Source of the DNA: Syntrophus aciditrophicus
GTDB taxonomy: Bacteria > Desulfobacterota > Syntrophia > Syntrophales > UBA5619
Reading direction: 5' to 3'
Length of the DNA: 53,407 nucleotides
Assembly (NCBI GenBank): GCA_020726025.1
Contig: DYTH01000003.1
Coordinates: 1 to 53,407, forward strand
In this document: piece after piece, positions 1-40,640 of the stretch
Numbering within the stretch: the first letter of the stretch is position 1
Layout: every line of letters begins with the position of its first letter
Notes under the pieces: model-generated
The model's input: only the letters and a program-made list of their open reading frames with translations
Told to the model about the DNA's origin: nothing
Databases searched by the model: none
Program-made: the position numbers and the translations under genes

Positions 1-48
1 AGCACGGAATGACAAAAAGGGGCAAAATCGACTTTTGACGAGTTCATC
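1..48 (-). mobile_element. Partial MITE (family A, GATG...CATC ends), cut by the window edge
   Basis: Reverse complement of 1-50 matches 21055-21103 almost exactly (TTGATGAACTCGTCAAAAGTCGATTTTG...GTCATTCCGTGCT). Flanked by AAGCTT (49-54), an AANNTT target like the AATGTT at the other copy. Confidence 0.8.
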
Positions 49-301
49 AAGCTTACAAGCAAGCAACTAAACTGAACCGCGTTGATCCTCATCCGCAAAA
101 GCGGGAGGCATTTTGAATTAAATAGACTACGTGAAAAGAACTTTTCCGCTAACAAAAGACGGTTGCTGGATAACAGGCATTTTTTACAATGTCAACAGAA
201 AAAATGAAAAAGTGTGACGCATTTCACAACTGAGTTCACAACAGCGGTTGACGGGTAAGAGGCAGGAACGGCCAACCCCCTCCACGTACATGCATTCGCA
301 C

Positions 302-2290
302 CTACATTTCTCCTCCCGACCCGGCGAAGGAAAGGGCTTCCTCCAGCCACGTATCCATCTTCAACACCTCCCGGCGCTGACGGTAAGCGAGCCGCTGGGC
401 GGTTCTCTGCGCCTGGAAAAGCGCGATTCTGGCCAGCACGTCCACACCCGGCGTCTTTCCCTGAAGCGCCGCGGCAAGTCTTTTCCTGAGCAGGGGCGAG
501 ACAAAACGCCGGATCAATTCGTCTTCCACGCTCATGAAGGCCTGGGCGGCGCCAGGGTCTCCCTGTCTCGCGCAACGGCCGAAGAGCTGGCGGTCGATGC
601 GCCCCGATTCATGGCGCTCGGTGGCTATCACATGGAGACCACCCATCTCCGCGACGCCGTGTCCGAGCTTGATGTCGGTGCCTCGTCCGGCCATGTTCGT
701 GGAAATGGTTACCCTCCCCTTTTCACCCGCAGCGGCCACGATCCTCGCTTCCTCGCTGTGGCGGACGGCGTTGAGAAGATTATAGTCGAGACCTCTGGCG
801 GCAAGCATGAGGGCGAGTTTTTCACTGACCGTGACGCTTCTTGTTCCTACAAGCACCGGACGTCCGGTATTCCGCAGCATCTCGATTTCATCGACCACGG
901 CCTCGAACTTCTCCCGCTCCGTGGAAAATATCCGGTCGGGCATGCTTACCCTTATGCAGGGGCGATTGGTAGGAATCGTCATGACAGGGAGGCGGTAAAT
1001 ATGCCAGAACTCCGCAGATGCCTCTTTTGCGGTGCCGGTCATTCCGCTCAATTTCCTGAAAAACCGGAAAAACCTCTGGAAGCTCAGTCTCGCCAGTGTC
1101 TCGCTCGGGTCGTTCACGGTAATGCCTTCCTTTGCCTCGATCGCCTGGTGCAATCCGTGCCGCCATGTCCTGTTCGGCATCAATCTACCGGTAAACTCAT
1201 CGACAATCGCAACCTTGCCGTCCTGGACGACATACTGCTGATCCCGCTTGTAGAACTCCCTTGCCGTCAGAGCCTGCTTTACCAGTTCCTCCCGCCTGGC
1301 CGACCCGCGCCATATTCCATTGAGCATCACCGACTGTTCGTCAACCTTTCGCTCCCCCTCCTTCGTGAGCGAAATCTCCTTATATCGCTGGTTGATTAAA
1401 TAATCCCGACCGGCGTCCAGTGGCTCAACGAGCCGGTGGGTTATTTCGCACGCCTCGACCAGCGAGGAGTTCTTCTGAGGACGGGAGATGATAAGCGGGG
1501 TTACCGCCTCGTCGATCAGGACGCTGTCCGCCTCATCGACAATGGCCGTGTCCAGCCCCCGCAGCACCGTATTGTCGGCGGCTGTCGGGGGACGCAGAAG
1601 CTGGCGGAGCTGCCGTCTTGAAGCGTTGTGCAGCTCTCCGATTATCAGCCTGTCCCGGAGAAAATCGGCCACCAGTTCCTTGAGCGTCGTATAAACAACA
1701 CCTTTCTCATAATTGGCACGCCTATCCTTCGGCTCCATCTGCGAGGTCACACAGCCTACGGAAACACCGCAGAACGAATAAAAGTCCTTCATCTCCAAGG
1801 CATCCCGGTCGGCAAGATAGTCGTTCACCGTGACAAAATGGAAGGGTCGCCCCGTCCAGGCGGCCAGCACCGCCGGCAGACAGGCGGTAAGACTCTTGCC
1901 TTCACCGGTGGCCATCTCGGCAAGGTAGCCGTGGTAGAGGGCGAGCGCCCCCATCACCTGAACCGGATAGGGGAGCATGCCGGTGGTTCGGTTGGACGCC
2001 TCGATCATATACGCCAGGGCCTCGGGCAAAAGCTGGTCAACCTCCTTCCCCCGGCGGCGAAACTCTGTTTGAAGTTCGCCGAGGTTCCCCCTCAGTCTGC
2101 TGTCGGATAAATAAACAAGCTTCCTGGCGTCTTCACTAATTTTGTCCGCATCTGCCTTCAACAAACGGGCGACGGAGGGACGTCGTTTGTTCCACCCCTC
2201 AAACCCGTGGATAAGCGCGTCCATCCCCTGATGGAGCTTTTCAGGAATCACAATGCGGGTACGGTGATAATCCTGGGACGGGACTCTCAT
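302..2290 (-). CDS. Secondary SecA-like ATPase (SecA DEAD/NBD1-NBD2), C-terminally shortened
   Basis: SecA motifs EMATGEGKS, VTVNDYLA, IVDEADSVLIDEA, GLHQAIEAKE, GMTGTA, TNMAGRGTDI, TERHESGRIDRQLFGRCARQGDPG. Start placed at ATG 2290 (MRVPSQD), overlapping the upstream stop (TGATG); 662 aa. Confidence 0.9.
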   Translation of the reverse strand: MRVPSQDYHRTRIVIPEKLHQGMDALIHGFEGWNKRRPSVARLLKADADKISEDARKLVYLSDSRLRGNLGELQTEFRRRGKEVDQLLPEALAYMIEASNRTTGMLPYPVQVMGALALYHGYLAEMATGEGKSLTACLPAVLAAWTGRPFHFVTVNDYLADRDALEMKDFYSFCGVSVGCVTSQMEPKDRRANYEKGVVYTTLKELVADFLRDRLIIGELHNASRRQLRQLLRPPTAADNTVLRGLDTAIVDEADSVLIDEAVTPLIISRPQKNSSLVEACEITHRLVEPLDAGRDYLINQRYKEISLTKEGERKVDEQSVMLNGIWRGSARREELVKQALTAREFYKRDQQYVVQDGKVAIVDEFTGRLMPNRTWRHGLHQAIEAKEGITVNDPSETLARLSFQRFFRFFRKLSGMTGTAKEASAEFWHIYRLPVMTIPTNRPCIRVSMPDRIFSTEREKFEAVVDEIEMLRNTGRPVLVGTRSVTVSEKLALMLAARGLDYNLLNAVRHSEEARIVAAAGEKGRVTISTNMAGRGTDIKLGHGVAEMGGLHVIATERHESGRIDRQLFGRCARQGDPGAAQAFMSVEDELIRRFVSPLLRKRLAAALQGKTPGVDVLARIALFQAQRTAQRLAYRQRREVLKMDTWLEEALSFAGSGGEM

Positions 2291-4446
2291 CAAAGCTGGT
2301 ACCTCTTCTGCAACATCTGGCGGAACAGATGGCCCCACTGGAAAAGCAGCGGCCGTGGCTTGAGGGTGAAACGGAGTTTCCCCGACATTCCATGCAGCAG
2401 TAGTACTTCCGGCGTCGGCACGATATCGGCATAAATCTGGAAAAAAGGCTCGGAGGCCCGGGTACCGGTTTCGTCTTTCACGGAGACGGCAAGGTCCCCG
2501 CCTCCCCGCCATCCCAGCGCGGCGGAGGGCAATTTCTCCTGCCGATAAGGAATGATCCGGAATTTCGATACGGCAAGATTTGTCTCGCCCTGCCCGTATA
2601 TCCTCACCTCGACTTTGCTAATACCGCCGACGAAAAGTTCCGCAGCCTCATCCTGGGAGACAACCGCCGAAAAGCGGAAGGAGCGCTCATTAACGATCTG
2701 TCCTATCACGCCCCCCCTGTCCAGCCAGGAACCGACCAGGTCGTTTATCCTGGGGGCCACCCAGATTCCCGCTTCTCTTGCCCTTACGGTGAGAGAAGCC
2801 CGTTGGAGTTCCAGATCCTTAAGTTTCGCGTCAATGGACTCAAGACGTTTTTGAAGCGGCTCAAGATCGGCGGTTTCCTTGTTGAGCGCCTTGAGAATGA
2901 GCGCCTCAGTTTCTTTCTTTTGGCCGATTACCGCCTCAGTTTCCAGTTCGAGCTCGCGGTCATGCATCTCCAGAAGCGCCATACCGGGGCTCACCTGTCG
3001 GCCCGAAGGAACGATCACCTTTTTCAGGTAGCCGGGGGCGTCGTTCACCACCTGGACGTACTGCATCGTTTCCATCACGCCCGGGGCGCGAAATCTGTCG
3101 GGAAACGGGATAAGGGCAAGAAAAAGAACCAGAAGCGAGAGGAACCCCGCAGAAACGAGGACGGCCCTCATTCTCGTCCGGGCCAGACGGGGGTTCGTGG
3201 AAAGGTAAATGAAAAACTTGTAAAGAGGAACCACCACCCAGGTCACGACGCCGATCAGCGCCATGATCATCCCGGCGAGCAGAAACTTGTCCGCTACGAA
3301 AAAGATGATCCCCGAAAAGACGATGACCCGGTAAATACCGCTCAGAATCGCGAAGATGGTCAGATAAACGGTTTCCCTGCGCCCCTGCGCCGGGCTGAAT
3401 GACTCCTTGTAGCCGAAGGCATACCTTTCCACGAGATGGCGGAGGTGCTTCATCGCCCGCGAGCTGAGGTTAGGAATGTCAAGTAAATCCGAGAGTATGT
3501 AGTAGCCGTCAAAGCGCAGAAGCGGGTTTCCGTTGAACAGGACAGTCGAGACGGAGGCAATGAACATGATGTTGTAGGCGAGGCTGTGGAGGGTCCCCTC
3601 CCCGGAGTAGGCCCAGACAAACGTGGCGATCGCCGCCACGAAAATCTCCATGATCATTCCGGCGGCGCCGACAAGCGCCCTCTCCCAACGGCTCCGGAAG
3701 GCCCAGCTCGATGTCGCGTCCATGTACGGCAACGGGGTAAAAACCAGCAGCATCACACCCATCGTATGCACCTCTCCGCCATAGCGGCGGCACACCAGGG
3801 CATGACCGAACTCGTGAATCGTCTTGACGACGATCAGCCCCAGATACAGCAGAAAGAGGTTGTCCGGGGCAAGTATCCCCTGCACCTGATCGAAGGCCAT
3901 ATCGAAACGATCCACTACCAGCTTGATCGCCCAGCCTGTTGAAACAAGCCACAACAGCGCCCCCAGCGGCGAGATAAGCAGCCGGAAAATCGGCATCAAC
4001 TGTTTAAGGAGATTATCAGGATCGAAAAGGGGCAGCCGCATGAACAGAATACTCATGAGTTTCGACTGCATCTCCCGCTGGCGGCGCTTCCGGTAACGCT
4101 CGAAAAGCTTGGCGCTGTCCGCAGGTTTTTCGAAATGGAGAAGGTTGGCGAAATAGAGCTGGGTCAGCAACTGAATCACGTCTTCCTGTCCCGGCGCGTT
4201 GTCGGGATCCCGATTGAGGCACTCCTCCCAGACTTCCGAGACGGTACGATCCGACCGGAGCCGGATCACGAAATCGTGCGCCTCCGACCGCAGACGAAAG
4301 AACTGGTTGTTAAAGGGGTCGCGGAACATGTACCATATCTCGCCGCGAAAGCGCCTTTTGCTTACCTGGACGGACGGGTGGAGGCTGACCTTGAGATCTG
4401 CCACGCGATACCACGACTCACTGAATGTTTTTCCAGCCTTTTGCAT
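2290..4446 (-). CDS. PqqD-like domain + M50 (site-2) membrane metalloprotease + HlyD-type adaptor fusion
   Basis: HEFGH zinc motif and NGNPLLRFDGYY (NPDG-type third ligand); multiple hydrophobic helices; C-terminal lipoyl/coiled-coil adaptor region. The N-terminal ~100 aa resemble a PqqD winged helix. Start MQKAGK at 4446. Confidence 0.85.
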   Translation of the reverse strand: MQKAGKTFSESWYRVADLKVSLHPSVQVSKRRFRGEIWYMFRDPFNNQFFRLRSEAHDFVIRLRSDRTVSEVWEECLNRDPDNAPGQEDVIQLLTQLYFANLLHFEKPADSAKLFERYRKRRQREMQSKLMSILFMRLPLFDPDNLLKQLMPIFRLLISPLGALLWLVSTGWAIKLVVDRFDMAFDQVQGILAPDNLFLLYLGLIVVKTIHEFGHALVCRRYGGEVHTMGVMLLVFTPLPYMDATSSWAFRSRWERALVGAAGMIMEIFVAAIATFVWAYSGEGTLHSLAYNIMFIASVSTVLFNGNPLLRFDGYYILSDLLDIPNLSSRAMKHLRHLVERYAFGYKESFSPAQGRRETVYLTIFAILSGIYRVIVFSGIIFFVADKFLLAGMIMALIGVVTWVVVPLYKFFIYLSTNPRLARTRMRAVLVSAGFLSLLVLFLALIPFPDRFRAPGVMETMQYVQVVNDAPGYLKKVIVPSGRQVSPGMALLEMHDRELELETEAVIGQKKETEALILKALNKETADLEPLQKRLESIDAKLKDLELQRASLTVRAREAGIWVAPRINDLVGSWLDRGGVIGQIVNERSFRFSAVVSQDEAAELFVGGISKVEVRIYGQGETNLAVSKFRIIPYRQEKLPSAALGWRGGGDLAVSVKDETGTRASEPFFQIYADIVPTPEVLLLHGMSGKLRFTLKPRPLLFQWGHLFRQMLQKRYQL

Positions 4447-4447
4447 A

Positions 4448-6304
4448 TCACCACCACAAAAGGATGCGGAGGAAGTCGATGGTCCTGTGAGCGAAAATCC
4501 AGAGGATGTTCCTCTTGCCGACGTTGATTTTCGCAACCCCGCTCATCCCGGGACGCCACCACGTCTCGGGTTTATCCGGAAGCAGGGCGCGGGCAAGATA
4601 GACGTTCCTTTCGTCTTGCGTGACGGCCACCGGATCCACGCGGTCAACCCGCACCGGAAATTTCAGATCCGGCCTCCCCACAAAGGCTATCTCACCGGCG
4701 CTTTTCACGGCTACTTCGTGAACGTCCCGTTCGTCAACCTTCATCTCGACGTACATATTTCCAAGTCGGGCCACCTTGAAAAGGATGTCTCCCTTTTTCA
4801 CCGGCGCGCCCAACAACTCTTTAAGGTCTCCCTCGACGACAATACCTTCAAAAGGCGCCCTCACGTCTGCATGATTCAGATGGTAGTGCACCATCTTGAG
4901 ACGGGCATCCGCCTGTTCTTCAAGCGCACGGGCGACCTTCATATCGGCCAGCGCCTTCTGGGCATAAGCCTTGGCGGCCTCCCTGACGTAACGGTTCTGA
5001 TTTGCCACCGCCGTCGCTTCCTCAAGAAGCAACTCGCGGGTGTCCAGTGAAAGGAGCGGACTCTCTTTCCTGACGCGGTCGCCTATCTTTACGTGCACCT
5101 GGTGAATATAACCATCAAAAGGCGCCGGAAGATACGAAAGATCATCCGTTTTCAAAATGAAAGGCGCCTCGACGCGGTACTCCATCTTTCCAAAAATCAA
5201 AACCGCCAGGGCGATTGCGACCAGAACGCCCAGCAACTTGGCGAAGGTGTGTTCAACACCGAGAAGTTTGCCCAGCGCCTCCCGCACAGAAGCAAAAATT
5301 CGCGCCCCGAACCAGCGGTCAAGACGTTTCAGGTCTCCGAGACGACGTGCCGCCTGGTCGCAGAAGACGCGCAGACCCCGGACATCCTCTTCAGAAAATG
5401 GTTCCTCGGAGCGCTCACAGGTAAGCACCGCCTCCGGATTGTCGTCAAGTCGGAGCGTAAGCGATGCGAGGTACCGCGCCCCCTGCTCCCGGGAATACTT
5501 TTCGTGGTCGCGGACAACCGAAAGAGCACCCTCCGGACGGGGCCAGATGATCTCCTCGTCCTGGTCAAGCGCCTCTTCCATCGCCGCCTCGATGGCCTGA
5601 ACTGCCGTCATTTTCTTCTCGAACTTCTCGATATGGCTGATAGCCTGCACCCGGACATAGCCGTCCTGCACCCAGCCAAGACTGACTCGATCGCATCGAT
5701 AGCGGGAGGCGATCTCGTTGCAGAAGGTCATCGCTGCGGCAACGTATCTTTTTTCGGCATTGAGAAGCACCATCAGGTCGAGCGCTTCGGAAAACTTCGC
5801 CACGTCGTTTCGGGCGCGGACAACCACATTTCCCAACTGGTAAACCGAGGGAGTGTCCGCAACCAGCTCAAGGCGGGTTTTGGCCTCAACAGCGGAGATA
5901 CGGGCGCCCTGGGAGATCAAAAACGTGGCAGCGCTGTTCCTTGCGTCTTCAGTTACAAGCTTGACCGCCACGACAAGACCTTCGGCGGGGATCGGCCCTT
6001 CCCATCCGACTGGTTCAGTGACAAACCCTTCACTCATCGCCATACCAGCCGCCAGCTCCATCCTTTTTATTATGTCGGCGCTTTTGGAAACCTTCACGGC
6101 GGGGTCCTGCCAGAGGGAAAGCTTTCGCCAGCCTTCGTTATTTTCCTGACGGAGAAGCAGCAACCCCATGTCCGCCTCTACCAGTCTCGCCGCCTCTTCG
6201 AGAAAGGCTGGCCAGAATTCGGAGGGGGCTCCAGTGAAGCGGCGAATCTGCGTTATCCTCTTCCCGACAGCTTCTCTGTGTTCACTTTCTTTTACGTTTT
6301 CCAT
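4448..6304 (-). CDS. GAF-domain-containing HlyD/RND periplasmic adaptor
   Basis: N-terminal GAF-like region (CDRVSLG...AMEEALDQ), one TM helix, then adaptor hallmarks (APFDGYI..V.VK.GD.V, RAPFEGIV, RPGMSG.AKI). Confidence 0.8.
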   Translation of the reverse strand: MENVKESEHREAVGKRITQIRRFTGAPSEFWPAFLEEAARLVEADMGLLLLRQENNEGWRKLSLWQDPAVKVSKSADIIKRMELAAGMAMSEGFVTEPVGWEGPIPAEGLVVAVKLVTEDARNSAATFLISQGARISAVEAKTRLELVADTPSVYQLGNVVVRARNDVAKFSEALDLMVLLNAEKRYVAAAMTFCNEIASRYRCDRVSLGWVQDGYVRVQAISHIEKFEKKMTAVQAIEAAMEEALDQDEEIIWPRPEGALSVVRDHEKYSREQGARYLASLTLRLDDNPEAVLTCERSEEPFSEEDVRGLRVFCDQAARRLGDLKRLDRWFGARIFASVREALGKLLGVEHTFAKLLGVLVAIALAVLIFGKMEYRVEAPFILKTDDLSYLPAPFDGYIHQVHVKIGDRVRKESPLLSLDTRELLLEEATAVANQNRYVREAAKAYAQKALADMKVARALEEQADARLKMVHYHLNHADVRAPFEGIVVEGDLKELLGAPVKKGDILFKVARLGNMYVEMKVDERDVHEVAVKSAGEIAFVGRPDLKFPVRVDRVDPVAVTQDERNVYLARALLPDKPETWWRPGMSGVAKINVGKRNILWIFAHRTIDFLRILLWW

Positions 6305-6374
6305 AGATCCTGCCCGTGATGGTTGTCTGGATTCTTTTTCGGCGCCTATTGAACAGAAGGTCGACCGGTATATC

Positions 6375-7253
6375 TCATCTTCCTAATAGCAGGAAACCGG
6401 CTACGCCAGGTCTCACCACACCGTCTTTGTTGTCAAATTCAACTTTTACCTCAAGCAGTCCACTCGCAGGATCGACCACAGGGGAGACAAACACCGTCTT
6501 ACCCTTGATAGGCATCGCGCTTTTTCCCGTGTTAATCTTGAGATTGACCATCTGGCCTGTGTGGAGACTTCGTCCGATCCATTCTTCCACGTTACAGACA
6601 AAAATGGACCGGCTGGTATCCACGAGGTGAACAAGGGGTTGATTCACTTCGACCCCCTCACCCTCATCAAAAAACAGTTTGATTACAGTACCGTCGATCG
6701 GCGATGCAAGACTTCTTCGGGAAAGGGCCTCAATGGCCATCCGGTACTCAATCTCCTCCCGTTCTTCCTGAGCTGTCAGCCGTTTCTGCTCGGCCACGGC
6801 CAGGTCGTACTCCAGCTTTAACTTCTCAAGTTCTTCCCGGCTTACCGAGGCGGTTGTATTGAAAAGCTCCTGATTCGAGTCCAAAATCCACTTGAGTGTT
6901 CGTACCCGGAATGCAGCCGCTTCCAACTCGGATGTGGCGTCCCGAATGAGTTTTCTTCTTTCGGTTTCCAGTTCATCCAGTTGTTTTTCCATCTCCAGAA
7001 GAACGGTTCCTTTGCTGACAACATCCCCTTCCCTGACGAGGATTTCAGAAACCACGCCGGCCATCGTTGCACTCAAATTGACATCCCGAAAGGGCTCCGT
7101 GATCCCGGCGACTGATATCCCCTCACCCGCCCGCACCATACACGGGAAAAACAGCGCGACAATCAGAAAAAACGTAATTCCAACAATCGCGGGAATCCGC
7201 ACCTTCCGGTGCGGCCTCACTTTCGGTTTGTTGTTGAGATGTATCATGGTCAT
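6375..7253 (-). CDS. Efflux RND/T1SS periplasmic adaptor subunit (MFP)
   Basis: N-terminal hydrophobic segment; GVVSEILVREGDVV, coiled coil, SPIDGTV, SPVVDPASG, RPG motifs. Confidence 0.85.
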   Translation of the reverse strand: MTMIHLNNKPKVRPHRKVRIPAIVGITFFLIVALFFPCMVRAGEGISVAGITEPFRDVNLSATMAGVVSEILVREGDVVSKGTVLLEMEKQLDELETERRKLIRDATSELEAAAFRVRTLKWILDSNQELFNTTASVSREELEKLKLEYDLAVAEQKRLTAQEEREEIEYRMAIEALSRRSLASPIDGTVIKLFFDEGEGVEVNQPLVHLVDTSRSIFVCNVEEWIGRSLHTGQMVNLKINTGKSAMPIKGKTVFVSPVVDPASGLLEVKVEFDNKDGVVRPGVAGFLLLGR

Positions 7254-8944
7254 TGTCGTTCGACCTCCTTGATTTCTACTCCTCTGTTCATCAGCAGAGC
7301 CCCTTCCGCCAAATCAAGCTGGTGGAGAGCTTTCATGAATTTGACAAGGGTTTCCGCCTCGCCCTCCCGTGCGTTGATCAGATTTTGCTCCCGTTCAAAC
7401 AGCATCCGGCTGTTGCTTTTTCCAATACGGAATCTTTCCGTTTCCGTATCGAGCAGTTTTCTGGTCATCTCGACAACCCCTGATTGTTCTTTGACCTGTT
7501 CCAGACTATTGTCCACATTCCGCAACGCGGTCTCAATAGAATTGGCGAGGGAGACTTCCACTGCCTTTACCTCCAGCAAAACCTGACGTCTGCGTTGCAA
7601 CGCGGCTGCATGTTCGCTCGAAGCCTTTTTATTCCCCCCCAACGGTATTTTTAATTCAAGTCCGACCATCCAGGATGGATGCTTCGCCTTCGTCGCGTCG
7701 TTGAATGGATCGGCGTATCTGTCGGTCAGTCCATTCAAGAAGTAACTGCCCTTCAAGTCAATTTGCGGCCATAACTGGTTTTTGGCATAGGCAAGCCGGA
7801 CATCCTCACGTTCGACTTTTTTTCGTACCGCCAGATACTCGCCGCGGAGTTTAAAAGATCGGTTGAGACTCTCTGCAAAATCTCGGTGGGTAACCTCTAT
7901 CGACGGACGATCCACTGTTTCGATCTCTTCTCCTGCCAGAGCCACTGAGGTGGAAAGGAATGTTCGAACCATGTTCATGGCGGCCACCACGGCCTGTTTA
8001 GCCTCGCTGACCAGCGACCGGCGGGCGGCGAGCGCTGCTTTGGCCTCGATAACCTCGGTCTCGGCCATTTTTCCCGTCTTGAGCCGGACAAAATTGTCAT
8101 GAAGAATTTTTTCGGCAGTCCGCGCCGAATCCCGACGCAGCAATAATTTTTCACGGGCGAGAAACAGATCCCAGTAAGCGGACATCGCCTCGGCAACCAC
8201 CCGCATGGCCTGCATCCGGTAGTTCTGGAAGGCGATGTCCCTATCCGCTTCGGCAATGCGTATCGGCGCCATTGTCGGCGCAACACCGGCATCTTTCAGA
8301 AGTGGCTGGCTGATGCTGGCCCCGAGCGTTGTCTGTTTGTACTTGTCGAATCCGTAGCCTTCATTCACGCTATCGGAAAAATCACGGTACGAATATGCCA
8401 GCTTGACCCTCCCGCCTACCGGGAGCAGTTCCTCGACGGCAAGTTGCTGGCTGTAACTGTCTTCCCAGAACTCCGGCAGAACAAAACCTCCGTTATTGAA
8501 AGTTGACATCATCTGTTGGGCGGTATTTTTTCTTTTATCGTACTGGAGCTGATAAGTCCCGAGCATCACAGGTTCAAAAACAGCCTTCGCGCCCCTGACA
8601 GCCTCACGGGTAACCGCCCACTCCGCATCTTGAAACGCGATCTGCTCGTTGTTTCTCATGACGCTGACGACATAGTCGTTCAAACTGACCAAAAGAGTTC
8701 GGGGAACCTTTGTGACTTGCGACGGCTTTCCGGCAATCCCGGCGACAGATTCTTTCGGTGATCCTTTCATCTCATCCGCTGCCGTAATGATTCCGGGGAA
8801 GCCCATACAAATCATTGCGGCAATCAGACAATGAGCAAATCGTCCCATCCCGGGGACGCTCCGTGATACGGCTCCGCTTCTATTTGCGGGCAAACGCCCC
8901 GATCGTAAAGACAAACCATCGCTCATAAGATACTCCACCACCAT
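7250..8944 (-). CDS. TolC-family outer membrane channel
   Basis: Two OEP-like repeats (AYWDL...; KNQLWPQIDL...ERFRIGKS). A signal-peptide-like segment after Met33 suggests the true start may be 8848. Confidence 0.85.
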   Translation of the reverse strand: MVVEYLMSDGLSLRSGRLPANRSGAVSRSVPGMGRFAHCLIAAMICMGFPGIITAADEMKGSPKESVAGIAGKPSQVTKVPRTLLVSLNDYVVSVMRNNEQIAFQDAEWAVTREAVRGAKAVFEPVMLGTYQLQYDKRKNTAQQMMSTFNNGGFVLPEFWEDSYSQQLAVEELLPVGGRVKLAYSYRDFSDSVNEGYGFDKYKQTTLGASISQPLLKDAGVAPTMAPIRIAEADRDIAFQNYRMQAMRVVAEAMSAYWDLFLAREKLLLRRDSARTAEKILHDNFVRLKTGKMAETEVIEAKAALAARRSLVSEAKQAVVAAMNMVRTFLSTSVALAGEEIETVDRPSIEVTHRDFAESLNRSFKLRGEYLAVRKKVEREDVRLAYAKNQLWPQIDLKGSYFLNGLTDRYADPFNDATKAKHPSWMVGLELKIPLGGNKKASSEHAAALQRRRQVLLEVKAVEVSLANSIETALRNVDNSLEQVKEQSGVVEMTRKLLDTETERFRIGKSNSRMLFEREQNLINAREGEAETLVKFMKALHQLDLAEGALLMNRGVEIKEVERQ

Positions 8945-9596
8945 CCTTTATTCATGTTATTCCGAAGAACCAACGATCATCGGAAGATAAGGACATTACA
9001 GGTCAACGACGCATCCCTGCTGTTTTCTGACATGAGCGTGTCGTCGATCTGCTTATGCAATCCGAATCCAGCTGCGCATGACAGGCCAATCTGTAAAGCC
9101 CGTGAAGGAAACGGCCCTGGTGGCAAGTCCAACCATGGCCGCCCGCGAAACACGCGTAAATCTATATGTGAAAAAGAAATGGTTGTCAATAGAAGGACCC
9201 ACTGATGAAGCATCATCTGCCACCATAATTATGAACTCTTCGCTGTGCGCCATGCTGACTTGCTCCAGATAAAGGGATATGCTCACTGTGTTCATCATCT
9301 CCGTGGTCATGAAATCAGTATAGCCATCCCATGGGCTGACCGCCGCATATTTATAACGGAATTTGGGTCCCGTGATTTTATATTTATTTTTCGTGAACGG
9401 GGTTAAACGAATATTTACATTCCAAATTGAATCAGGCTTGCATTGCATCTACATAACGGCGAGTAAGATAAAGAAAATCCAGTTTGGGAATGACAGGGAC
9501 GTAAAAGAGCAACGATCATCTTTTTTTAACTGCCTGTCCGGCGGGGCAAAATTTTTTTCAAGTCGCTTATTATCAAATAATATCAACCACATTACC

Positions 9597-9616
9597 TATG
9601 TCGGTGCACCGACATA
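9597..9616. promoter_or_regulatory. Perfect 20-bp palindrome TATGTCGGTGCACCGACATA; candidate parS-like site or operator
   Basis: Read directly from sequence. The 16-bp core TGTCGGTG-CACCGACA has the length and TGT...ACA ends of parS and lies 160 bp upstream of the parB-like gene. Function is inferred. Confidence 0.6.
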
Positions 9617-9776
9617 CCCCTTCAGTAACGGATGAATTGAATCCCCCTGAGCGGCGTCTGATTACGGCTTCGGGACATTGTCAAAAAAACTAAATATTGC
9701 AAATATTATCGAAATAATGGATATAGCGGGCAAAATGTCGCGTCCCCCAACCACCAAATTTTGAAAGGAGCCTCCC

Positions 9777-10565
9777 ATGGCAACAATGACCCCGCCTCCC
9801 TCGTCAACCTATCAGAAAGGACAATTCTACCAAATTCCCATCACGGACTTTAGACCGGACCCCGACCAGCCTCGCAAGTTCGTCGATCCCGGCCCTCTCG
9901 CCGAGCTTGCCGCCTCAATCGCCAAACACGGCATTGTCCAGCCGCTCCTTTTTCGCGATGCGGGGCAGGGTTGGCTCTATATCGTCTCCGGCGAACGCCG
10001 CTATCTCGCCGCCCAGCAGGTGGGTTTGACCGTGCTTCCGGCGATCTGCGTCGAGGGAAACCACGCCGAGATCGCCCTGGTCGAAAATTTACAGCGTCAG
10101 GATCTCACTGCCGTTGAGGAAGCGGAGGCGCTCCAGCGGCTTATGGACGAACAGAATTATACACAGGAACAGTTGGGAGACATACTCGGGAAAGCCCGCA
10201 CAACCATCACCGAGATAATGCTCCTGAACCGCCTTCCCCTGCAAATTCGCGACGAATGCCGTGGAGATCGCTCAATTTCCCGGGCTGCCCTGATCGAAAT
10301 TGCCCGTAAAAAACAGGAGCGTTCGATGTTCACCGCCTACACCGCCTTTCGGGACAAACAGCAACAGGGAAAGCGGGAAGTTAAGAAAAAAGACCCCAAC
10401 AATCCCGTTTACGCGCTGAGCACAGTGGAAAGGACCACGGCCAAAATCAGCACGATCGACACATCGGCATGGGCAGAAGACGACCGGGAGAGTTTCCGCG
10501 TCTCCCTCGTTAATCTCCAAACCGGGATAGAAAATTATCTGAATCCGCACCCGGAACTGGCATGA
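9777..10565 (+). CDS. Orphan ParB/Spo0J-family CTPase DNA-binding protein
   Basis: QPRK box, GIVQPL, SGERR CTP-binding motif, ENLQRQDL, HTH YTQEQLGDILGKARTTI; RBS AAGGAG. No adjacent parA. Confidence 0.9.
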   Translation: MATMTPPPSSTYQKGQFYQIPITDFRPDPDQPRKFVDPGPLAELAASIAKHGIVQPLLFRDAGQGWLYIVSGERRYLAAQQVGLTVLPAICVEGNHAEIALVENLQRQDLTAVEEAEALQRLMDEQNYTQEQLGDILGKARTTITEIMLLNRLPLQIRDECRGDRSISRAALIEIARKKQERSMFTAYTAFRDKQQQGKREVKKKDPNNPVYALSTVERTTAKISTIDTSAWAEDDRESFRVSLVNLQTGIENYLNPHPELA

Positions 10566-10770
10566 CGGCGCCTGAAGGGTAAACAGGAGTCATTCAGGGG
10601 TCAATCCGATGCCGGGAGGCGTTCATCCGGGAAAATGACGGGGCGGTCCGTGAAGAACACGGATTCGGGGACGCGGCAATCACTGAACATCGCCTCGCCA
10701 TGCCTTCGTGAAAAACTTAATCCCCTTGTATTTGCTTGCATCTATCAATAGTATCGGCCTGCATGGATAT

Positions 10771-10813
10771 GTGGCATCGATACGTGGCATTGACAAGTGG
10801 CATTGATGTTGCT
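10771..10813 (+). promoter_or_regulatory. Sigma54 (-24/-12) promoter of the pilin gene, with tandem 13-bp repeats of the -24 box
   Basis: TGGCATTGATGTTGCT at 10798-10813 fits GG-N10-GC. GTGGCATyGA starts at 10771, 10784 and 10797. Type IVa pilin genes are commonly RpoN-dependent. Confidence 0.75.
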
Positions 10814-10931
10814 TTACGATAGTGCAGTCAACGACGAGGAAAGGAGGGACGCCGGGAAAACAAAAATTCGGTTAATCCAGGGGAAACAGTTAGACAACAA
10901 CCTACACTAAATAGAAAAGGAGAAAAAAATC

Positions 10932-11312
10932 ATGTTTAGTACATTTCACAAAAAAAACAGCAAGGGCTTCACGTTGATCGAACTCATGATCGTTATCGCC
11001 ATTATCGGCATCCTGGCGGCTATCGCCATCCCGCAGTTCACCTCCTACAAGACGAGAGGCTACAATACCGCGGCGAAATCCGACCTGAAAAATGCCTACA
11101 CGGCCGCGCAGGCCTATTTCAGCGACTACCCGGCTGCTACGATGGTCGTGGGGAATCTTACCTCGTACGGTTACAAAGCGTCATCGACAGTTACCCTTAC
11201 CGTTACGACCGGCACGCAGGCGGCTCTTGGCATGAGGGCTATTGGCTCCGCCGGAGGCGGCACAGGCAATATCACCTATTCCGTGAACAGCGCCGGAACG
11301 ATAACGCCTTAA
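10932..11312 (+). CDS. pilA: Type IVa major pilin
   Basis: Prepilin cleavage motif KG|[22 protein letters not shown] with E5; 114-aa mature protein; RBS AAGGAG. Confidence 0.95.
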
Positions 11313-11363: not shown

Positions 11364-11435
11364 ATGGCTGGGCCTTCGCTTCGAAAATATTGTAACCAGA
11401 CGCAAATCAGCAGGGTAAAAAGCAGGCGACTCCCG

Positions 11436-13211
11436 ATGGGAACAATTCCACGACAAAATAAAACATTTTTGATCTGCGCACTCCTTTCTCTGGCAGTCCT
11501 TGTCGTCTTCCGGCAGACGCTCACTTTCGATTTCATCGATTATGACGACGCGTTGTATGTCGTAAAAAACCCCTCTCTTCTCTATGGATTGACCAAAGAG
11601 GGGTTGGCGTGGGCCGCAGGCTCGCTGTACGCCGCGAACTGGCACCCCCTGACGCTGCTTTCTTTTCTGGTTGATTACGAGCTGTACGGCATGAATCCGG
11701 GCGGGTATCACCTGACAAACACGCTCATTCACCTTCTCGGCGGCCTGTTTTTGTTTTTCGCCTTCCGGGAGATGACCGGAAATAGCTGGAAAAGCTGCCT
11801 CGTTGCGGCAATTTTTCTTCTCCATCCCCTCCATGTGGAACCAGTCGCCTCGGTGGCGGGGCGAAAGGATGTTTTAAGCGGTTTTTTCTGGGCGCTGACG
11901 ATTCTCGCCTATGCCCGCTACACGAGAAAACCTGTTTTATGGGCTTATTTATTGACATGTTTCTTTTTTATCCTCGGGCTTATGTCAAAGGCGACCGTGG
12001 TTACACTGCCCCTCGTCCTTCTTCTCCTCGATTACTGGCCATTGAACCGATTTAACGAAATTTCCGAAGAACATTCAGCGCCTTTCGATAACCGTTTATT
12101 CTTCCCGAAGGCATCCCCTGCGCGACTGCTGACAGAGAAGATACCCTTCCTGCTTCTATCTGGCGTTGCGGGCCTGCTGACCTGGAAGGCCCAAACCGGC
12201 GCCGCGGCAATCGCCCCGCTGTTCGAGCTTGATTTCACCACCCGCGTCGGCAACGTGGCCCATTCCTTTCTCATGTACATCGGAAAGACCATCCGGCCGG
12301 TTGATCTTTCCTTCTTCTACCCGTATCATCCAGCCGGTAAAACCGGCTGGATTCTTCCGGCTGTGCTGCTTTTTACGGCCGTCGGCGCCCTCGGCCTGCG
12401 TCTGAGAAAATCCGCCCCCTGGTTTATCGTCGGCTGGCTGTGGTTTGTCCTGACGATGCTGCCGACAATCGGAATTGTCCAGGCAGGCTCGCAGTCCATG
12501 GCGGATCGTTACACCTATATCCCCATGATCGGCCTTTCCGTCATTGCCGTGTGGGGCAGCGGCATCTACAAACCATCCCGAAAGGGCAACATGATATTTG
12601 CCGCAACCTGGCTTGTCGTTTTATCGCTGCTTATCGCCGACAGCAAATGCCAGACAACATACTGGCAGAACAGCCGCACCCTTTTTGAACACGCGCTTTC
12701 CACAACAGAGGGCAATTATCTTGCCCACAATAATCTGGGGGCGTTCTTTATGAAACAGAATCAATACGATTCGGCCGAACGCCATTTTCGCGAGGCGCTG
12801 CGGATTAAGCCCGGCTATGCCGATGCGGGAATCAATCTGGCGCAGATTATGCTCATAAAAGGTAAAACCGTCGAAGCCGAGACCTCGTTTCGCAATGTAC
12901 TGAACTTCCATCCCGATAACGACCGCGCCAGAAGACTGCTCTGCGATTTCCTGCTGACAACGGGAAAAAACAGGGAGGCGATTGTGTGCTATGATAAGGC
13001 CGCAGCGGCAAGCCCCGACAATCCGGAACTGCAAAACAACCTCGCTGTGGCGCTCGCGGGAAACAACCAGATCGATGAGGCGATTATTCATCTCGAACGG
13101 GCGCTGCGCCTGCAACCGGGCTTCAAGGACGCAAAGAGAAATCTCGACCTGCTCCGGACGAAAAATGAAACCACCGGCAAAAAGACAGCCGCTTCCCCGA
13201 AAACCCCCTGA
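11436..13211 (+). CDS. TMTC-like GT-C membrane glycosyltransferase with C-terminal TPRs
   Basis: FIDYDD acidic loop, NWHPLT, HPLHVEPVASVAGRKDVL and ADRYTYIP parallel TMTC O-mannosyltransferase motifs; many TM helices; TPR repeats (AHNNLG, LQNNLA). Start uncertain (11364 or 11436). Confidence 0.8.
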   Translation: MGTIPRQNKTFLICALLSLAVLVVFRQTLTFDFIDYDDALYVVKNPSLLYGLTKEGLAWAAGSLYAANWHPLTLLSFLVDYELYGMNPGGYHLTNTLIHLLGGLFLFFAFREMTGNSWKSCLVAAIFLLHPLHVEPVASVAGRKDVLSGFFWALTILAYARYTRKPVLWAYLLTCFFFILGLMSKATVVTLPLVLLLLDYWPLNRFNEISEEHSAPFDNRLFFPKASPARLLTEKIPFLLLSGVAGLLTWKAQTGAAAIAPLFELDFTTRVGNVAHSFLMYIGKTIRPVDLSFFYPYHPAGKTGWILPAVLLFTAVGALGLRLRKSAPWFIVGWLWFVLTMLPTIGIVQAGSQSMADRYTYIPMIGLSVIAVWGSGIYKPSRKGNMIFAATWLVVLSLLIADSKCQTTYWQNSRTLFEHALSTTEGNYLAHNNLGAFFMKQNQYDSAERHFREALRIKPGYADAGINLAQIMLIKGKTVEAETSFRNVLNFHPDNDRARRLLCDFLLTTGKNREAIVCYDKAAAASPDNPELQNNLAVALAGNNQIDEAIIHLERALRLQPGFKDAKRNLDLLRTKNETTGKKTAASPKTP

Positions 13212-13253
13212 TCGCCGCAACAGCGGCAAACATACCAAAAGGCGTGATTCCTT

Positions 13254-14981
13254 ATGGACAAACAAGAGACGACAGTGCCAGACAGAAAAAGAAACCTTGC
13301 GCTGCTTGCGGTTTTTGCGGCTTCCGCAGCGATAAAATCCGCCATCTGCATTCTTGCGACCGATCCGATCATATTCAACAAATATCCATATTTTGCCCAG
13401 AAGCTGAGCTCAGGGGCGGATATCGGCGAAAGAATCCTCGATCTGAGCCCGCTTTACCTCTTTCTCGTTACGATATTTTTTGAAATTTTCGGCCCCAACT
13501 GGGATATTCTGACGGCGCTGCAGATAATCCTCGGCAGTTTCAATTGCGTCATCGTGGGGCTTGTCGGGACAAGACTATTCAACCCGGCGGTCGGGATACT
13601 CTCCGCACTCATCCTCATGCTTTACGGAAACATGACCCTGATCGAATGCGCCATCGAGCCGGAGGGCCTCTTTGTTTTCCTCAATTCACTGACGGTTCTT
13701 GCCCTGCTGTGGGCCGCCGGTGATAAAACATCGCCACCGCACCCGGCAAAATGGCTCCCCGGGGGGATATTGATTGGTCTTGCGGCTGTCGCAAAGGCGA
13801 ATGCGCTTTTGATAATCCCCGGCGCGGCCGTCTGGATATGGCTATCCACGAAGGAAAGACGCATCCGGTCTTTGACGCTGCTTCTTCTGGGGGCAGCGCT
13901 CGTAATTGCTCCGGTAACAATCAGGAATTTCTGTCTGTTTGACGATTTTGTCCTTTTGACCGCCGACGGCGGCAAGGTGTTTTTTCATGGCAACGGCCCC
14001 GGCGCAACCGGCATGGAAAGGGCGGACATGCCCGACCAGGGCCTTATCGAAGAGGGGCAAACCGAGCCTGATTACGCCCATGCACTGTTCCGTCAAAAGG
14101 CCCGCGAGGCGACAAAGACCAGCCTCAAACCATCGGAATGTTCATCTTACTGGTTTTCACAAACCCAAAGGCATCTACTCGCCGCTCCAAAGGCCGCACT
14201 TTCCGGTTTTCTGAAGAAATTCCTTCTATTCTGGAACAATTACGAGGTGCACGACCTCGATACAACCTATAAGAGCTATAAAATAATCGGGAAATGGCCG
14301 TTTCTTACTGCGGGGATAATTGCCGCCGCGGGCATCCTCGGCATGATCTTTTCCGCAGGCATGCTCAGGCGGTTTTTTCTTTTGTACTGGATGGTTGCGA
14401 TATACATCGTTTCGGTCGTTGTCTTTTTTGCCGCTTCGCGTTACCGCCTGCCCGCCTTCAATTTTCTCGCAATCTTTGCCGCTGGTTTTCTGTATGAACT
14501 GTACGTTGCCATCAGCGGCAAAAAGCTTGAAAAAACCATCGTCGCCTTTCTGTTGATCCTGGTTTTCCTGGCATTCACCCACCTGCCCTTACGTGACGAA
14601 ATCAGAAAATACGACCTCTGGCAACACATTTCCCGGATAGATTACAGCCTCGGCGGAAGAATGCTGTTCAAAAAAGGAAATTTCCCGGAAGCAGCCCGTG
14701 AATTTGAGAAGGTTGTTTCTGCGGCCCCCGATTTTGTTCCGGCAGTCAACTACCTCGGCAAGACCTGCGCCATTCTCGGCAACTACGACTGCGCGTCGGA
14801 CTGTTTCCGGAAAGTCATCCGGTTAGCGCCCGCTTCCGACGAGGGCTACCTGAATGCCGGCCTTCTGCTTGAACTCCGGGGAAATAAAAGGGAGGCAAGG
14901 CGCTATTTTGAAAAAGCGCAGGCGTTAAACCCCAGAAACGTAAAGACCAGAGATCATCTGAACACCATAAGCCGCGAATGA
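13254..14981 (+). CDS. ArnT/PMT-like (GT39/GT83-type) membrane glycosyltransferase with TPRs
   Basis: Polytopic membrane protein with SPLY, IAPVTIRN, FFHGNGPGATG and SRYRLP motifs; C-terminal TPRs. Confidence 0.75.
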   Translation: MDKQETTVPDRKRNLALLAVFAASAAIKSAICILATDPIIFNKYPYFAQKLSSGADIGERILDLSPLYLFLVTIFFEIFGPNWDILTALQIILGSFNCVIVGLVGTRLFNPAVGILSALILMLYGNMTLIECAIEPEGLFVFLNSLTVLALLWAAGDKTSPPHPAKWLPGGILIGLAAVAKANALLIIPGAAVWIWLSTKERRIRSLTLLLLGAALVIAPVTIRNFCLFDDFVLLTADGGKVFFHGNGPGATGMERADMPDQGLIEEGQTEPDYAHALFRQKAREATKTSLKPSECSSYWFSQTQRHLLAAPKAALSGFLKKFLLFWNNYEVHDLDTTYKSYKIIGKWPFLTAGIIAAAGILGMIFSAGMLRRFFLLYWMVAIYIVSVVVFFAASRYRLPAFNFLAIFAAGFLYELYVAISGKKLEKTIVAFLLILVFLAFTHLPLRDEIRKYDLWQHISRIDYSLGGRMLFKKGNFPEAAREFEKVVSAAPDFVPAVNYLGKTCAILGNYDCASDCFRKVIRLAPASDEGYLNAGLLLELRGNKREARRYFEKAQALNPRNVKTRDHLNTISRE

Positions 14982-15059
14982 TTGCCGCCCGTCGCCATTT
15001 GACTATTAGCAGCGCTCAGGATAAGAGGCTGCCCGACAAAGAACAGTGAGCCCGTTGAG

Positions 15060-16703: not shown

Positions 16704-16787
16704 TTTTCAAATTCATTGAGGACGACGACAATCTCTCTTTTTCGAAAATCGCAAACTCGAGCTGGAACTCTTGCTGAAAGGGATAAC

Positions 16788-18821: not shown

Positions 18822-19050
18822 CGTCGCGTCTCTTATTTTGCATGACGATCCCGCCCTTGCCCACGGCAGGCGCGTCTTACAGTCTGTTTAGCTTCAGAAG
18901 GCGCAACACGAGGAAAATCATGACCACGGCAAAAAAGACGGCAAACGACGCGAAACCCGATACTTAACGGCGCTGTTTACAAAAGTCGCGGGTTGATGCA
19001 TGCAACGTGAAAAATAAAAGCGACCTCTTTAAAATGATATAGAGAAAACC

Positions 19051-39857: not shown

Positions 39858-40640
39858 CTACCGGAAACGCACCTTGCGGCGATACCGTTTATAGCCCTTC
39901 ACCGAAACCTCTTTGGCAATCCCGAGGTAGAACTCCTTGACGTCCTCATCCTCGCGGAGCGCCTCCGGCTTGTCGGCGCGGACAATCCGTCCGTTTTCCA
40001 TCAGAAAGGCAAAATTGGAATATTTAAGCGCCATGTTGACATTCTGCTCGACAACCAGAATCGTCACCCCTTCTTCCCGGTTTATATTGGAGATGATTGT
40101 GAATATCTCCTTCGTCAGAAGAGGCGAAAGACCAAGGGAGGGCTCGTCAAGCATGAGCAGCCTGGGTCGGCTCATCAGGGCCCTTCCGATTGCAAGCATC
40201 TGCTGCTCGCCGCCGCTTAGATGGCCTGCTTCCTGATCGTGCCTTTTTTTGAGGATCGGAAAATAAGTGAATATCCTTTCGACGTCGTCGTTTATCCCCT
40301 TGCGATCCCTTCTGGTATAGGCCCCCATCATGATGTTTTCCATGACGGAAAGCTCCGGGAAAACCTCGCGTCCCTCCGGCACGTAGCTGATGCCCATCCG
40401 GACGATCTCGTCGGTGTTTTTGCGGTCAATCCGCTCCCCGAGAAATTCGATCGTCCCCTTTTCAGGCTGCTCCTCCTTCGAGTCGTAGAGCAGCCGCATG
40501 ATCGTCTTGAGCGTCGTGGTCTTGCCGGCGCCGTTTGCTCCCAGAAGGGCGACGATGTCCCCCTGCTTGACTTCGAAAGAGATGCCGTGAAGGGCCCTTA
40601 TCAAATCATACCAGGTTTCGATATTGTTTACCTTCAGCAT
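39858..40640 (-). CDS. ABC transporter ATP-binding subunit (LivF-like)
   Basis: GANGAGKTT, LSGGEQQM, LDEPSLGL, VEQN. Confidence 0.92.
   Translation of the reverse strand: MLKVNNIETWYDLIRALHGISFEVKQGDIVALLGANGAGKTTTLKTIMRLLYDSKEEQPEKGTIEFLGERIDRKNTDEIVRMGISYVPEGREVFPELSVMENIMMGAYTRRDRKGINDDVERIFTYFPILKKRHDQEAGHLSGGEQQMLAIGRALMSRPRLLMLDEPSLGLSPLLTKEIFTIISNINREEGVTILVVEQNVNMALKYSNFAFLMENGRIVRADKPEALREDEDVKEFYLGIAKEVSVKGYKRYRRKVRFR

Follow-up and report, generated by a model that had tools for sequence, protein, structure and literature searches.

Can a SecA-type ATPase, with no ATP-binding cassette (ABC) transporter beside it, serve an exporter built around a TolC-type duct? Type I secretion systems (T1SSs) use an ABC transporter, and SecA normally works with SecYEG. 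The question is raised by five consecutive minus-strand open reading frames (ORFs) at 302-8944 of contig DYTH01000003.1 from Syntrophus aciditrophicus (assembly GCA_020726025.1), recognized from an ORF list and its translations. We analysed the contig at its full length of 53,407 nucleotides and refer to it as the window; it is contig C46 of an assembly (G000) of 2.16 Mb in 149 contigs that is 92% complete. The five genes encode a TolC-family outer-membrane factor (OMF), a small periplasmic adaptor, a second adaptor with a GAF domain, a fusion of an M50 metalloprotease with an adaptor, and a SecA-like ATPase. The operon is real, and we consider it quite plausible, and on balance probable, that it specifies an ABC-less, envelope-spanning machine for the export and maturation of a giant, nearly cysteine-free repeats-in-toxin (RTX) protein that carries an N-terminal LEPR-XLL leader.

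Composition of the operon

The first gene of the operon (7250..8944, minus strand, as are all five) encodes the OMF, which matches Pfam OEP (PF02321) in two stretches at 7.6e-30 and measures 564 amino acids from its first ATG. Its true start may be the internal Met33, directly ahead of residues 35-57, which are signal-like and hydrophobic by hydropathy, and its score against the NCBIfam type_I_sec_TolC model (93.6 bits) lies under the cut-off of 225. The small adaptor, a membrane fusion protein (MFP) of 292 amino acids (6375..7253), matches Pfam HlyD_D23, HlyD_3 and Biotin_lipoyl, scores above the cut-off of NCBIfam RND_mfp (TIGR01730; 115.8 bits against 94.9), and has an N-terminal membrane anchor or signal at residues 16-48 by hydropathy. 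The GAF-adaptor (4448..6304, 618 amino acids) is recognized by Pfam GAF at 5.4e-07 and HlyD_D23 at 7.5e-17; Pfam and hydropathy together place a cytoplasmic N-terminal region with the GAF domain at residues 192-322, a transmembrane helix at about 350-376, and a periplasmic MFP part at 388-600. The M50 fusion (2290..4446, 718 amino acids) combines Peptidase_M50 (PF02163) with an RND_mfp-like tail seen by NCBIfam, and the SecA-like protein (302..2290, 662 amino acids) matches Pfam SecA_DEAD at 6.7e-94 as well as SecA_PP_bind and P-loop_SecA. This is the gene content proposed in the initial annotation, and the Pfam and NCBIfam matches bear it out. The same annotation described all five genes as tightly coupled. 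Three of the junctions can indeed be read that way from the sequence: an ATGA overlap at 7250-7253 between OMF and small adaptor, a 1-nt gap at 4447 between GAF-adaptor and M50 fusion, and a 1-nt overlap (TGATG) at 2290 between M50 fusion and SecA-like gene. It overlooked, however, the 70-nt gap at 6305-6374 between the two adaptors, so not all junctions of the operon are tight. For the M50 fusion and SecA-like genes, longer TTG/ATG frames begin upstream of the likely ATG starts. Beyond the SecA-like gene there is a non-coding tail (1..301), and the first 41-55 nt of it, at the contig end, belong to a dispersed repeat.

Neither an ABC ATPase nor a resistance-nodulation-division (RND) pump had been reported in the operon, and a Pfam search of the neighbouring genes together with a scan of the window's frames agrees. 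No ABC transporter lies in the operon or within 30 kb of it by Pfam of the neighbours and a motif scan of the window, the sole window frame with ABC motifs being at 39861-40673, about 31 kb from the operon. No window frame reaches 800 amino acids, and therefore there is no gene of RND size. In the assembly as a whole, which represents 92% of the genome, HlyB-type scores reach at most 359.8 (cut-off 725.55) and PrtD-type scores at most 242.1 (cut-off 510.15). Measured against a classical T1SS, the operon has the adaptor and the TolC-family channel, and the dedicated HlyB/PrtD-type ABC transporter was not found. The genome holds six OMF genes including that of the operon, according to a Pfam OEP search of the contigs. 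BLAST of the operon's OMF and adaptors against the genome returned no second copy; since the Pfam search found five further OMF genes, this blank signifies divergence rather than absence.

A truncated SecA paralog

The initial annotation regarded the SecA-like gene as apparently dedicated to this operon, and a separate, full-length housekeeping secA was found on contig C133, where an 847-residue frame scores 451.7 bits against SecA_DEAD, compared with 316.4 bits for the gene in the window. The two proteins share 42% identity, the SecA-like protein aligning to residues 44-640 of the C133 frame, and to residues 38-607 of Bacillus subtilis SecA chains of 783-844 residues. It keeps both nucleotide-binding domains and the preprotein cross-linking domain, and its sequence ends at the start of the scaffold helix. 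Because the alignments stop at 607 in B. subtilis SecA and at 640 in the C133 protein, everything past that point is missing. On standard SecA domain maps, the missing part would comprise the C-tail, the wing domain and the two-helix finger, which enters SecY; the usual cysteine-rich C-terminal tail is present in the C133 SecA only. This truncation is a family trait. After 14 partial sequences among 83 relatives were excluded, the C-terminus fell 0-19 residues past the alignment end in all 69 near-full-length proteins, of which 62 retain Walker A and 67 retain GRG[TS]DI. In the window, Walker A (GEGKS) lies at 1906..1892 on the minus strand, and this motif and the HEFGH of the M50 fusion (3816..3802) were both located as the initial annotation had named them. 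None of the NCBIfam models for SecA or SecA2 is matched above its cut-off by the SecA-like protein, the SecA2 scores being 521.9 against 930 (TIGR03714), 466.6 against 725 (TIGR04221), 557.9 against 1085 (TIGR04397) and 402.6 against 1100 (NF012136). Pfam found no match in its N-terminus.

A giant RTX protein as candidate cargo

The contig ends 301 nt past the SecA-like stop codon, and exact copies of its first 41 nt stand in at least nine other places in the genome. Copies of this dispersed repeat lie on C8, C30, C31, C49, C54 (twice), C57, C111 and C129, and C5 carries a related copy, inverted, at its right end. The breaks in this assembly are probably due to repeats of this kind. What follows the operon can be approached through metagenome relatives, for which we compared the closest 14 of 37 loci (SecA-like identity 61-81%). 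Where at least 1 kb of downstream sequence was available, 6 of 10 close relatives have a giant ORF with a LEPR tag after the SecA-like gene. In the two nearest, L132 and L141, the tagged ORF starts about 260 nt past the SecA-like stop and begins '...PPNQFEMETLEPRILLSGE', near-identical to an in-frame start on our contig C5, and at this SecA-like/LEPR junction one flank matches the tail of C46 and the other matches the head of C5. The C5 protein is 74.6% identical to the L132 cargo over 1306 amino acids. Beyond its run of Ns, C5 and then C58 are colinear with the cargo of a third relative, L139; C5 and C58 share only a 54-nt match at 89%. C58 is a single frame of 6349 codons, open at both ends, and the C-terminus of the cargo is unassembled. 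Because of the synteny with L132 and L141 and the colinearity of C5 and C58, we expect the cargo gene just past the contig end. Judging by these comparisons, the gene beyond the SecA-like gene probably encodes a LEPR-tagged protein of more than about 8,000 residues, split over C5 and C58, and it would be contiguous with the operon in this genome too.

Two LEPR-XLL tags exceed the NCBIfam cut-off in this genome (NF012209, cut-off 17), one on C5 and one on C86, both outside the window; they score 29.7 and 28.4 bits on the genome and 24.5 and 23.5 bits on the proteins, and none of 14 control genomes had such a tag. Because C86 also holds a LEPR-tagged gene, the genome has at least two large tagged genes and one module. 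The candidate cargo has a cysteine content of 0-0.09%. Its later part, on C58, contains 16 RTX calcium-binding stretches (369.6 bits), and RTX repeats in the genome are confined to C58 and a giant frame on C86. That C86 frame is 2376 amino acids long and open at its 5' end, and between it and the LEPR gene (C86:7128-7640, L005) lie tandem G-rich repeats of about 26 nt with a run of Ns inside.

In a wider sample of 201 genomes of the same phylum, LEPR tags occur in six. Four of these belong to the six genomes with the three-gene core, and in a fifth a partial second SecA lies at the edge of a contig; the co-occurrence of tag and core gives a one-sided Fisher p of 3e-6 across the 201 genomes, a value overstated by kinship and by inclusion of the seed genome. 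The 6 of 201 genomes with relatives of the GAF-adaptor that also match its cytoplasmic part are the same ones that have a close M50 fusion and a second SecA. In G160 a LEPR gene comes directly after the SecA-like gene, and in G034 a LEPR gene of 9417 codons stands ahead of the module. The G160 protein after the SecA-like gene (L043, G160:C21:6536-12064) has DUF4347 (5.4e-49) soon past its tag, and cadherin-like repeats. In both LEPR proteins of the genome that holds the window, Pfam finds no domain in the first 500-odd residues.

Predicted leader recognition by the M50 fusion

How might such a leader be recognized? The M50 fusion scores barely above the Pfam cut-off for PF02163 (27.4 bits against 27.2). 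It matches the NCBIfam daptide HExxH protease model (NF041824) with 164.1 bits (5e-48), under the cut-off of 300, and the YydH/LiaK family at 3e-07, also under the cut-off. The zinc-binding and catalytic motif HEFGH (H211, E212, H215; 3802..3816, minus strand) and the second M50 motif NPLLRFDG (N305, P308, D313; 3505..3528, minus strand) are invariant in all 29 aligned homologs, which for HEFGH include those from modules without a SecA-like gene. An AlphaFold2 (AF2) model of the fusion (mean pLDDT, the predicted confidence per residue, 82.6) consists of an N-terminal domain, about seven transmembrane helices and, beginning near residue 447, a periplasmic MFP part at the C-terminus. Residues 194-221 and 285-322 are predicted helices that carry the two motifs, HEFGH being close to the cytoplasmic end of membrane helix two, and the best matches of the C-terminal part in the Protein Data Bank (PDB) are MacA, MexA and AcrA. 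Model and hydropathy together predict a topology with the N-terminus inside and the adaptor part outside.

Because a fold search with the whole fusion gave adaptor proteins only, the N-domain (residues 1-110; 4117..4446, minus strand) was modelled alone. AF2 on 63 sequences gave four strands and three helices at a pLDDT of 86.8, an arrangement that resembles PqqD and the recognition elements (RREs) of ribosomally synthesized and post-translationally modified peptides (RiPPs). Its closest folds in the PDB are those of lasso-peptide B1 proteins with bound leaders (6jx3_B, 5v1u, 5v1v), followed by TruD, ThcOx, TglHI and the PbtF RRE, with TM-scores normalised to the target of up to 0.69, at E values of 0.02 or more. 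An alignment of 14 LEPR leaders has invariant E, L, E, R and L in the pattern ExLE[PQ]RxLL, with a basic stretch ahead and no hydrophobic core. We modelled residues 1-460 of the M50 fusion together with residues 11-45 of the C86 LEPR protein, alongside three controls. The complex passes with a score of 0.70, compared with 0.01 for the best control; in calibration, 58 of 80 solved complexes and 2 of 110 mismatched pairs attained the mark. The runs share at least 70% of contacts, and the partner pLDDT is at least 56. On the peptide, the confident interface comprises residues 20-37, exactly the LEPR tag. On the fusion it comprises strand 48-53 and helix 85-100 of the N-domain and, at the M50 site, residues 208, 211-212, 215, 239-248, 304-305 and 311-313. 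The model supports binding of the LEPR tag and its placement at the protease site, not transport. The M50 domain had been proposed to be either the inner-membrane portal or a processing step. Because of the RRE-like fold matches of the N-domain and the complex model, the fusion looks like a receptor and peptidase for the N-terminal LEPR-XLL leader, and not like a portal.

Conservation and SecA-less variants

The M50 fusion belongs to a very large family: of 8000 database proteins scored against it, 7147 reach E<=1e-20. Its homologs carry the JGI name 'putative peptide zinc metalloprotease protein', and its nearest named relatives are from metagenome-assembled genomes of Thermodesulfobacteriota. 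A scan limited to one genome per species gave at least 600 matches, and those listed span Desulfobacterota, Lentisphaerota, Verrucomicrobiota, Planctomycetota, Proteobacteria, Fibrobacter, Nitrospira, Methylomirabilia and Myxococcota. Among the best 80 loci, the GAF-adaptor is present in 68, a further adaptor in 54 and an OMF in 20; open frames of 1500 amino acids or more occur at 18, and a LEPR-type tag is in view at seven. The SecA-like gene comes after the M50 fusion in 66 of the 80, in many phyla, and because of this we do not regard the arrangement as chance. The full order OMF-MFP-GAF-M50-SecA occurs in 13 of the 80 and also in L133, L139 and L141. ABC motifs appear at only two of the 80 loci, away from the module. 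The expectation that homologous neighbourhoods would keep the gene set and omit an ABC transporter therefore held in the main, but the SecA-like gene is not universal. Six of the 14 loci without it end right past the M50 gene, and eight have room for it.

Modules without a SecA-like gene occur both among the closer loci and among more distant relatives. Five of the eight closer loci with downstream room were checked at genome level: a second SecA lies elsewhere in the genome in three, and two have one SecA only. In one such locus (L126, Marinobacter suaedae), the GAF-adaptor, the M50 fusion and an adaptor are followed by a LEPR protein of 1716 amino acids. The distant ones emerged from the 201 same-phylum genomes, of which 23 have a match to the M50-adaptor. 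We fetched 13 neighbourhoods, representing near-full-length matches in 11 genomes after partial matches and fragmentary contigs were excluded. The five closest have the order GAF-adaptor, M50 fusion, SecA-like gene, and the eight distant ones have OMF, adaptor, GAF-adaptor and M50 fusion without a SecA-like gene. L044 (G145:C61) and L048 (G166:C1) are distant modules of this four-gene type in genomes with no second SecA. Beside the L048 module lie frames of 1730 and more than 2115 amino acids and a two-partner-secretion transporter of the ShlB/FhaC type.

Proposed mechanism and published systems

We speculate that export begins with the docking of the LEPR leader (ExLEPRxLL, preceded by a basic stretch) on the N-domain of the M50 fusion, at the cytoplasmic side, where the leader would add a strand to the domain. 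The leader would then enter the M50 active site and be cut off, in parallel to what the peptidase domain of bacteriocin-type ABC exporters does. The shortened SecA, an ATPase core with a polypeptide clamp and no wing, two-helix finger or C-tail, would act as the motor that holds and feeds the unfolded chain, which would cross the inner membrane and leave the cell in one step. The TolC-like channel and three adaptors would make up the duct; two of the adaptors are anchored in the membrane and have cytoplasmic parts. Calcium-driven folding of the RTX repeats outside would make export irreversible, and the GAF domain may gate it. More tentatively, the module may be a separate kind of secretion system rather than a variant T1SS: an RRE-like domain would read the LEPR leader, the intramembrane M50 protease fused to it would cut the leader off, and a SecA paralog without the parts that engage SecY would drive the giant, unfolded RTX protein N-terminus first through a hetero-oligomeric three-adaptor ring into TolC, with neither an ABC transporter nor SecYEG. 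If that proves true, many phyla (Desulfobacterota, Verrucomicrobiota, Planctomycetota, Proteobacteria and Nitrospirota, in at least 600 species genomes) export their largest proteins by a route absent from textbooks that combines a SecA-type motor, a leader-cutting membrane protease and a TolC duct. Such a route would also account for the export of giant RTX-type proteins where the genome has no ABC type I system. The short leader ExLEPRxLL, the predicted receptor domain, the catalytic residues and the existence of cultured carriers are handles for tests. Carriers in culture include Vreelandella aquamarina QJJ-865 (L087), where a LEPR gene adjoins the module, Pseudomaricurvus alkylphenolicus KCTC 32386, Limnohabitans sp. 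DCL3 and, according to the 2015 genome comparison discussed below, Methylobacterium extorquens AM1. The value of this window alone is more modest, as the gene set was published in 2015.

That publication, a genome comparison by Kamneva, Poudel and Ward (PLoS One 2015; PMC4452313), describes a secondary SecA_DEAD/type-I-secretion-related conserved locus. According to the paper, the locus comprises a SecA_DEAD protein without wing and scaffold, Peptidase_M50-HlyD, GAF-HlyD, HlyD/biotin_lipoyl and sometimes OEP proteins, and never an ABC transporter; SecA_DEAD is proposed to be the ATPase and the M50 protein a membrane pore, and the SecA_DEAD clade is placed beside actinobacterial SecA2. The operon in the window agrees in its second SecA_DEAD, the loss of wing and scaffold, the set of neighbours and the absence of an ABC transporter. 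This is the comparative report to which the initial annotation referred, with the same gene set and hypothesis, and the idea of a SecA motor with an M50 portal was therefore not new. As far as the accessible text goes, the paper names no cargo, leader or recognition domain, and it is here that the present work goes further. What it adds is the likely cargo, a giant RTX protein with a LEPR-XLL leader in a genome where no T1SS ABC transporter is recognisable, the RRE-like domain with the complex model, and the SecA-less variants, which limit the claim of a SecA motor. Our literature searches found no paper that ties LEPR-XLL to the module; LEPR-XLL itself is mentioned in two papers. As a separate observation, a preprint on Chlorobium chlorochromatii (bioRxiv 10.64898/2026.03.19.712371) reports, in the portion available, giant proteins without known signals that are flanked by sapC and tolC homologs; it also mentions a horizontally acquired secA (Cag_1676), which in that portion is not connected to the giants. 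These giants may be cargo of a machine of the present kind.

Several known systems share parts of this design. Classical T1SSs (HlyB-HlyD-TolC; LapB-LapC-LapE) likewise have an adaptor and a TolC-type duct and handle giant, acidic, cysteine-poor RTX cargo, and in both cases transport of an unfolded chain is presumed. Unlike them, the module has no ABC transporter, three different adaptors (two with cytoplasmic domains) and a SecA-paralog ATPase, and the signal of its candidate cargo would be a conserved N-terminal leader rather than a C-terminal one. In bacteriocin exporters of the peptidase-containing ABC transporter (PCAT) type, such as ComA and CvaB, the leader is read and cut at the cytoplasmic face by a protease fused to the exporter and transport is driven by ATP. 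The parallel is one of analogy only: PCATs use a C39 cysteine peptidase and an ABC motor, whereas the module has an M50 metalloprotease with an RRE-like domain, a SecA paralog and a candidate cargo of thousands of residues. The N-domain may resemble the RREs of RiPP systems (6jx3/5v1u) in its modelled fold and in the predicted binding of the leader by strand addition. The HExxH membrane proteases of such systems (daptide, YydH/LiaK) are related to the M50 fusion at up to 5e-48 with family cut-offs unreached; unlike these proteases, the M50 fusion carries a periplasmic adaptor, is paired with a SecA paralog and TolC, and has an apparently giant substrate. Accessory SecA2 proteins of Gram-positives and mycobacteria are also second, shorter SecAs for special cargo beside an essential one, but the SecA-like protein is truncated much further, occurs in diderms, and has adaptors and TolC as its gene partners in place of SecY2/Asp proteins.

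Weighing of the export reading

A number of observations weigh against the reading of the operon as a SecA-driven exporter of LEPR-tagged giants. Each of the eight genomes in which distant M50-adaptor modules occur has one SecA_DEAD gene only, and the closer loci L126 and L130 are likewise in genomes with one SecA_DEAD match. Because of these cases a dedicated SecA is common but not obligatory, and because some related modules, one of them with a LEPR cargo, do without a second SecA, the motor role of the SecA-like protein is something we infer. No inner-membrane channel was identified among the parts of the module, and an ABC exporter might sit in the 8% of the genome that is unassembled. RTX repeats are a hallmark of classical T1SS cargo with a C-terminal signal. 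The link between operon and cargo has gaps as well: 4 of the 10 close relatives carry unrelated genes after the SecA-like gene, and no exact overlap joins C46 to C5 or C5 to C58, C46 and C5 both ending in repeats. One LEPR-positive genome (G124, 94% complete) has no M50 fusion, GAF-adaptor or second SecA detectable with these queries; its LEPR protein (L035, G124:C57:63747-63815) of 675 amino acids is an exception to the link between tag and module. On the side of leader recognition, all RRE matches of the N-domain are weak, none having an E value of 0.001 or less, Pfam finds no family in this domain, and because leader-bound RRE structures have already been solved, the passing complex model may in part reflect likeness to them. 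The 2015 paper (PMC4452313) reports no experiment beyond a re-analysis of Methylobacterium extorquens array data, in which only the GAF gene was expressed. Our literature searches yielded no experimental study of any module member.

Some of these points would fit a role for the module in processing or retention only, whereby the cargo leaves the cell by another route, such as an unassembled ABC-type T1SS, the M50 fusion under GAF control tethers it and clips its LEPR tag in the manner of LapD/LapG-LapA, and the SecA-like protein is a holdase. One might expect RTX repeats, typical of cargo with a C-terminal T1SS signal, under such a scheme; the GAF sensor domain, the LEPR-cargo modules without a dedicated SecA, a complex model that speaks for positioning at a protease rather than transport, and a genome that is 92% complete all leave room for it. 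But three adaptors and a TolC-like channel belong to a duct rather than to a protease switch, no HlyB- or PrtD-type ABC transporter scores above its cut-off in the genome, ABC motifs are found at only two of the 80 best related loci, and the SecA-like protein has conserved ATPase motifs, so we think this scheme unlikely.

It is also conceivable, though we hold it to be quite unlikely, that export proceeds in two steps, the SecA-like protein driving the LEPR protein through SecYEG as SecA2 does, and the adaptors and TolC taking over from the periplasm, as MacAB-TolC does with some peptides. The 2015 paper (PMC4452313) puts the SecA_DEAD clade next to actinobacterial SecA2. The paralog has retained its preprotein cross-linking domain, and modules without their own SecA could use the housekeeping one. 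Yet the LEPR leaders, basic as they are, have no hydrophobic core of the kind seen in Sec signals, the SecA-like protein scores under every NCBIfam SecA2 cut-off, and it has lost the part past the start of the scaffold helix, which on standard domain maps includes the two-helix finger that enters SecY. The kinship of the M50 fusion with the daptide HExxH proteases (5e-48) and with YydH/LiaK (3e-07), the RRE-like N-domain and the JGI name of its homologs would suit a small RiPP or bacteriocin exporter with a leader peptidase, unrelated to giant proteins. We regard this as very improbable: both family scores are under their cut-offs, no precursor-like or modification genes lie nearby (three small upstream ORFs match no family), the giant LEPR gene is the next gene after the module in close relatives, and the LEPR tag docks on the N-domain in the complex model. 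The reading that we prefer thus remains export and maturation of the LEPR-tagged RTX protein by the module itself.

Upstream neighbourhood

Small ORFs at 8954-9635, directly upstream of the operon, were considered as peptide precursors; they have no family match and no case for that role could be made. The next genes (9777-11312) encode a ParB-like protein with ParB_N and HTH_ParB domains, without a visible parA partner, and a small pilin-like protein with an N-terminal prepilin methylation motif. These two genes sit between the export operon and a glycosyltransferase array at 11364-20988, in which five successive plus-strand genes encode PMT_2-type proteins of 615, 575, 547, 701 and 645 amino acids. 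The first two of these ORFs (11364-14981) had also been candidates for an ABC exporter, an identity that was rejected when Pfam identified them as PMT_2/TPR glycosyltransferases. Three of the five proteins have C-terminal TPR repeats, and the five form a paralogous array of membrane glycosyl or arabinosyl transferases.

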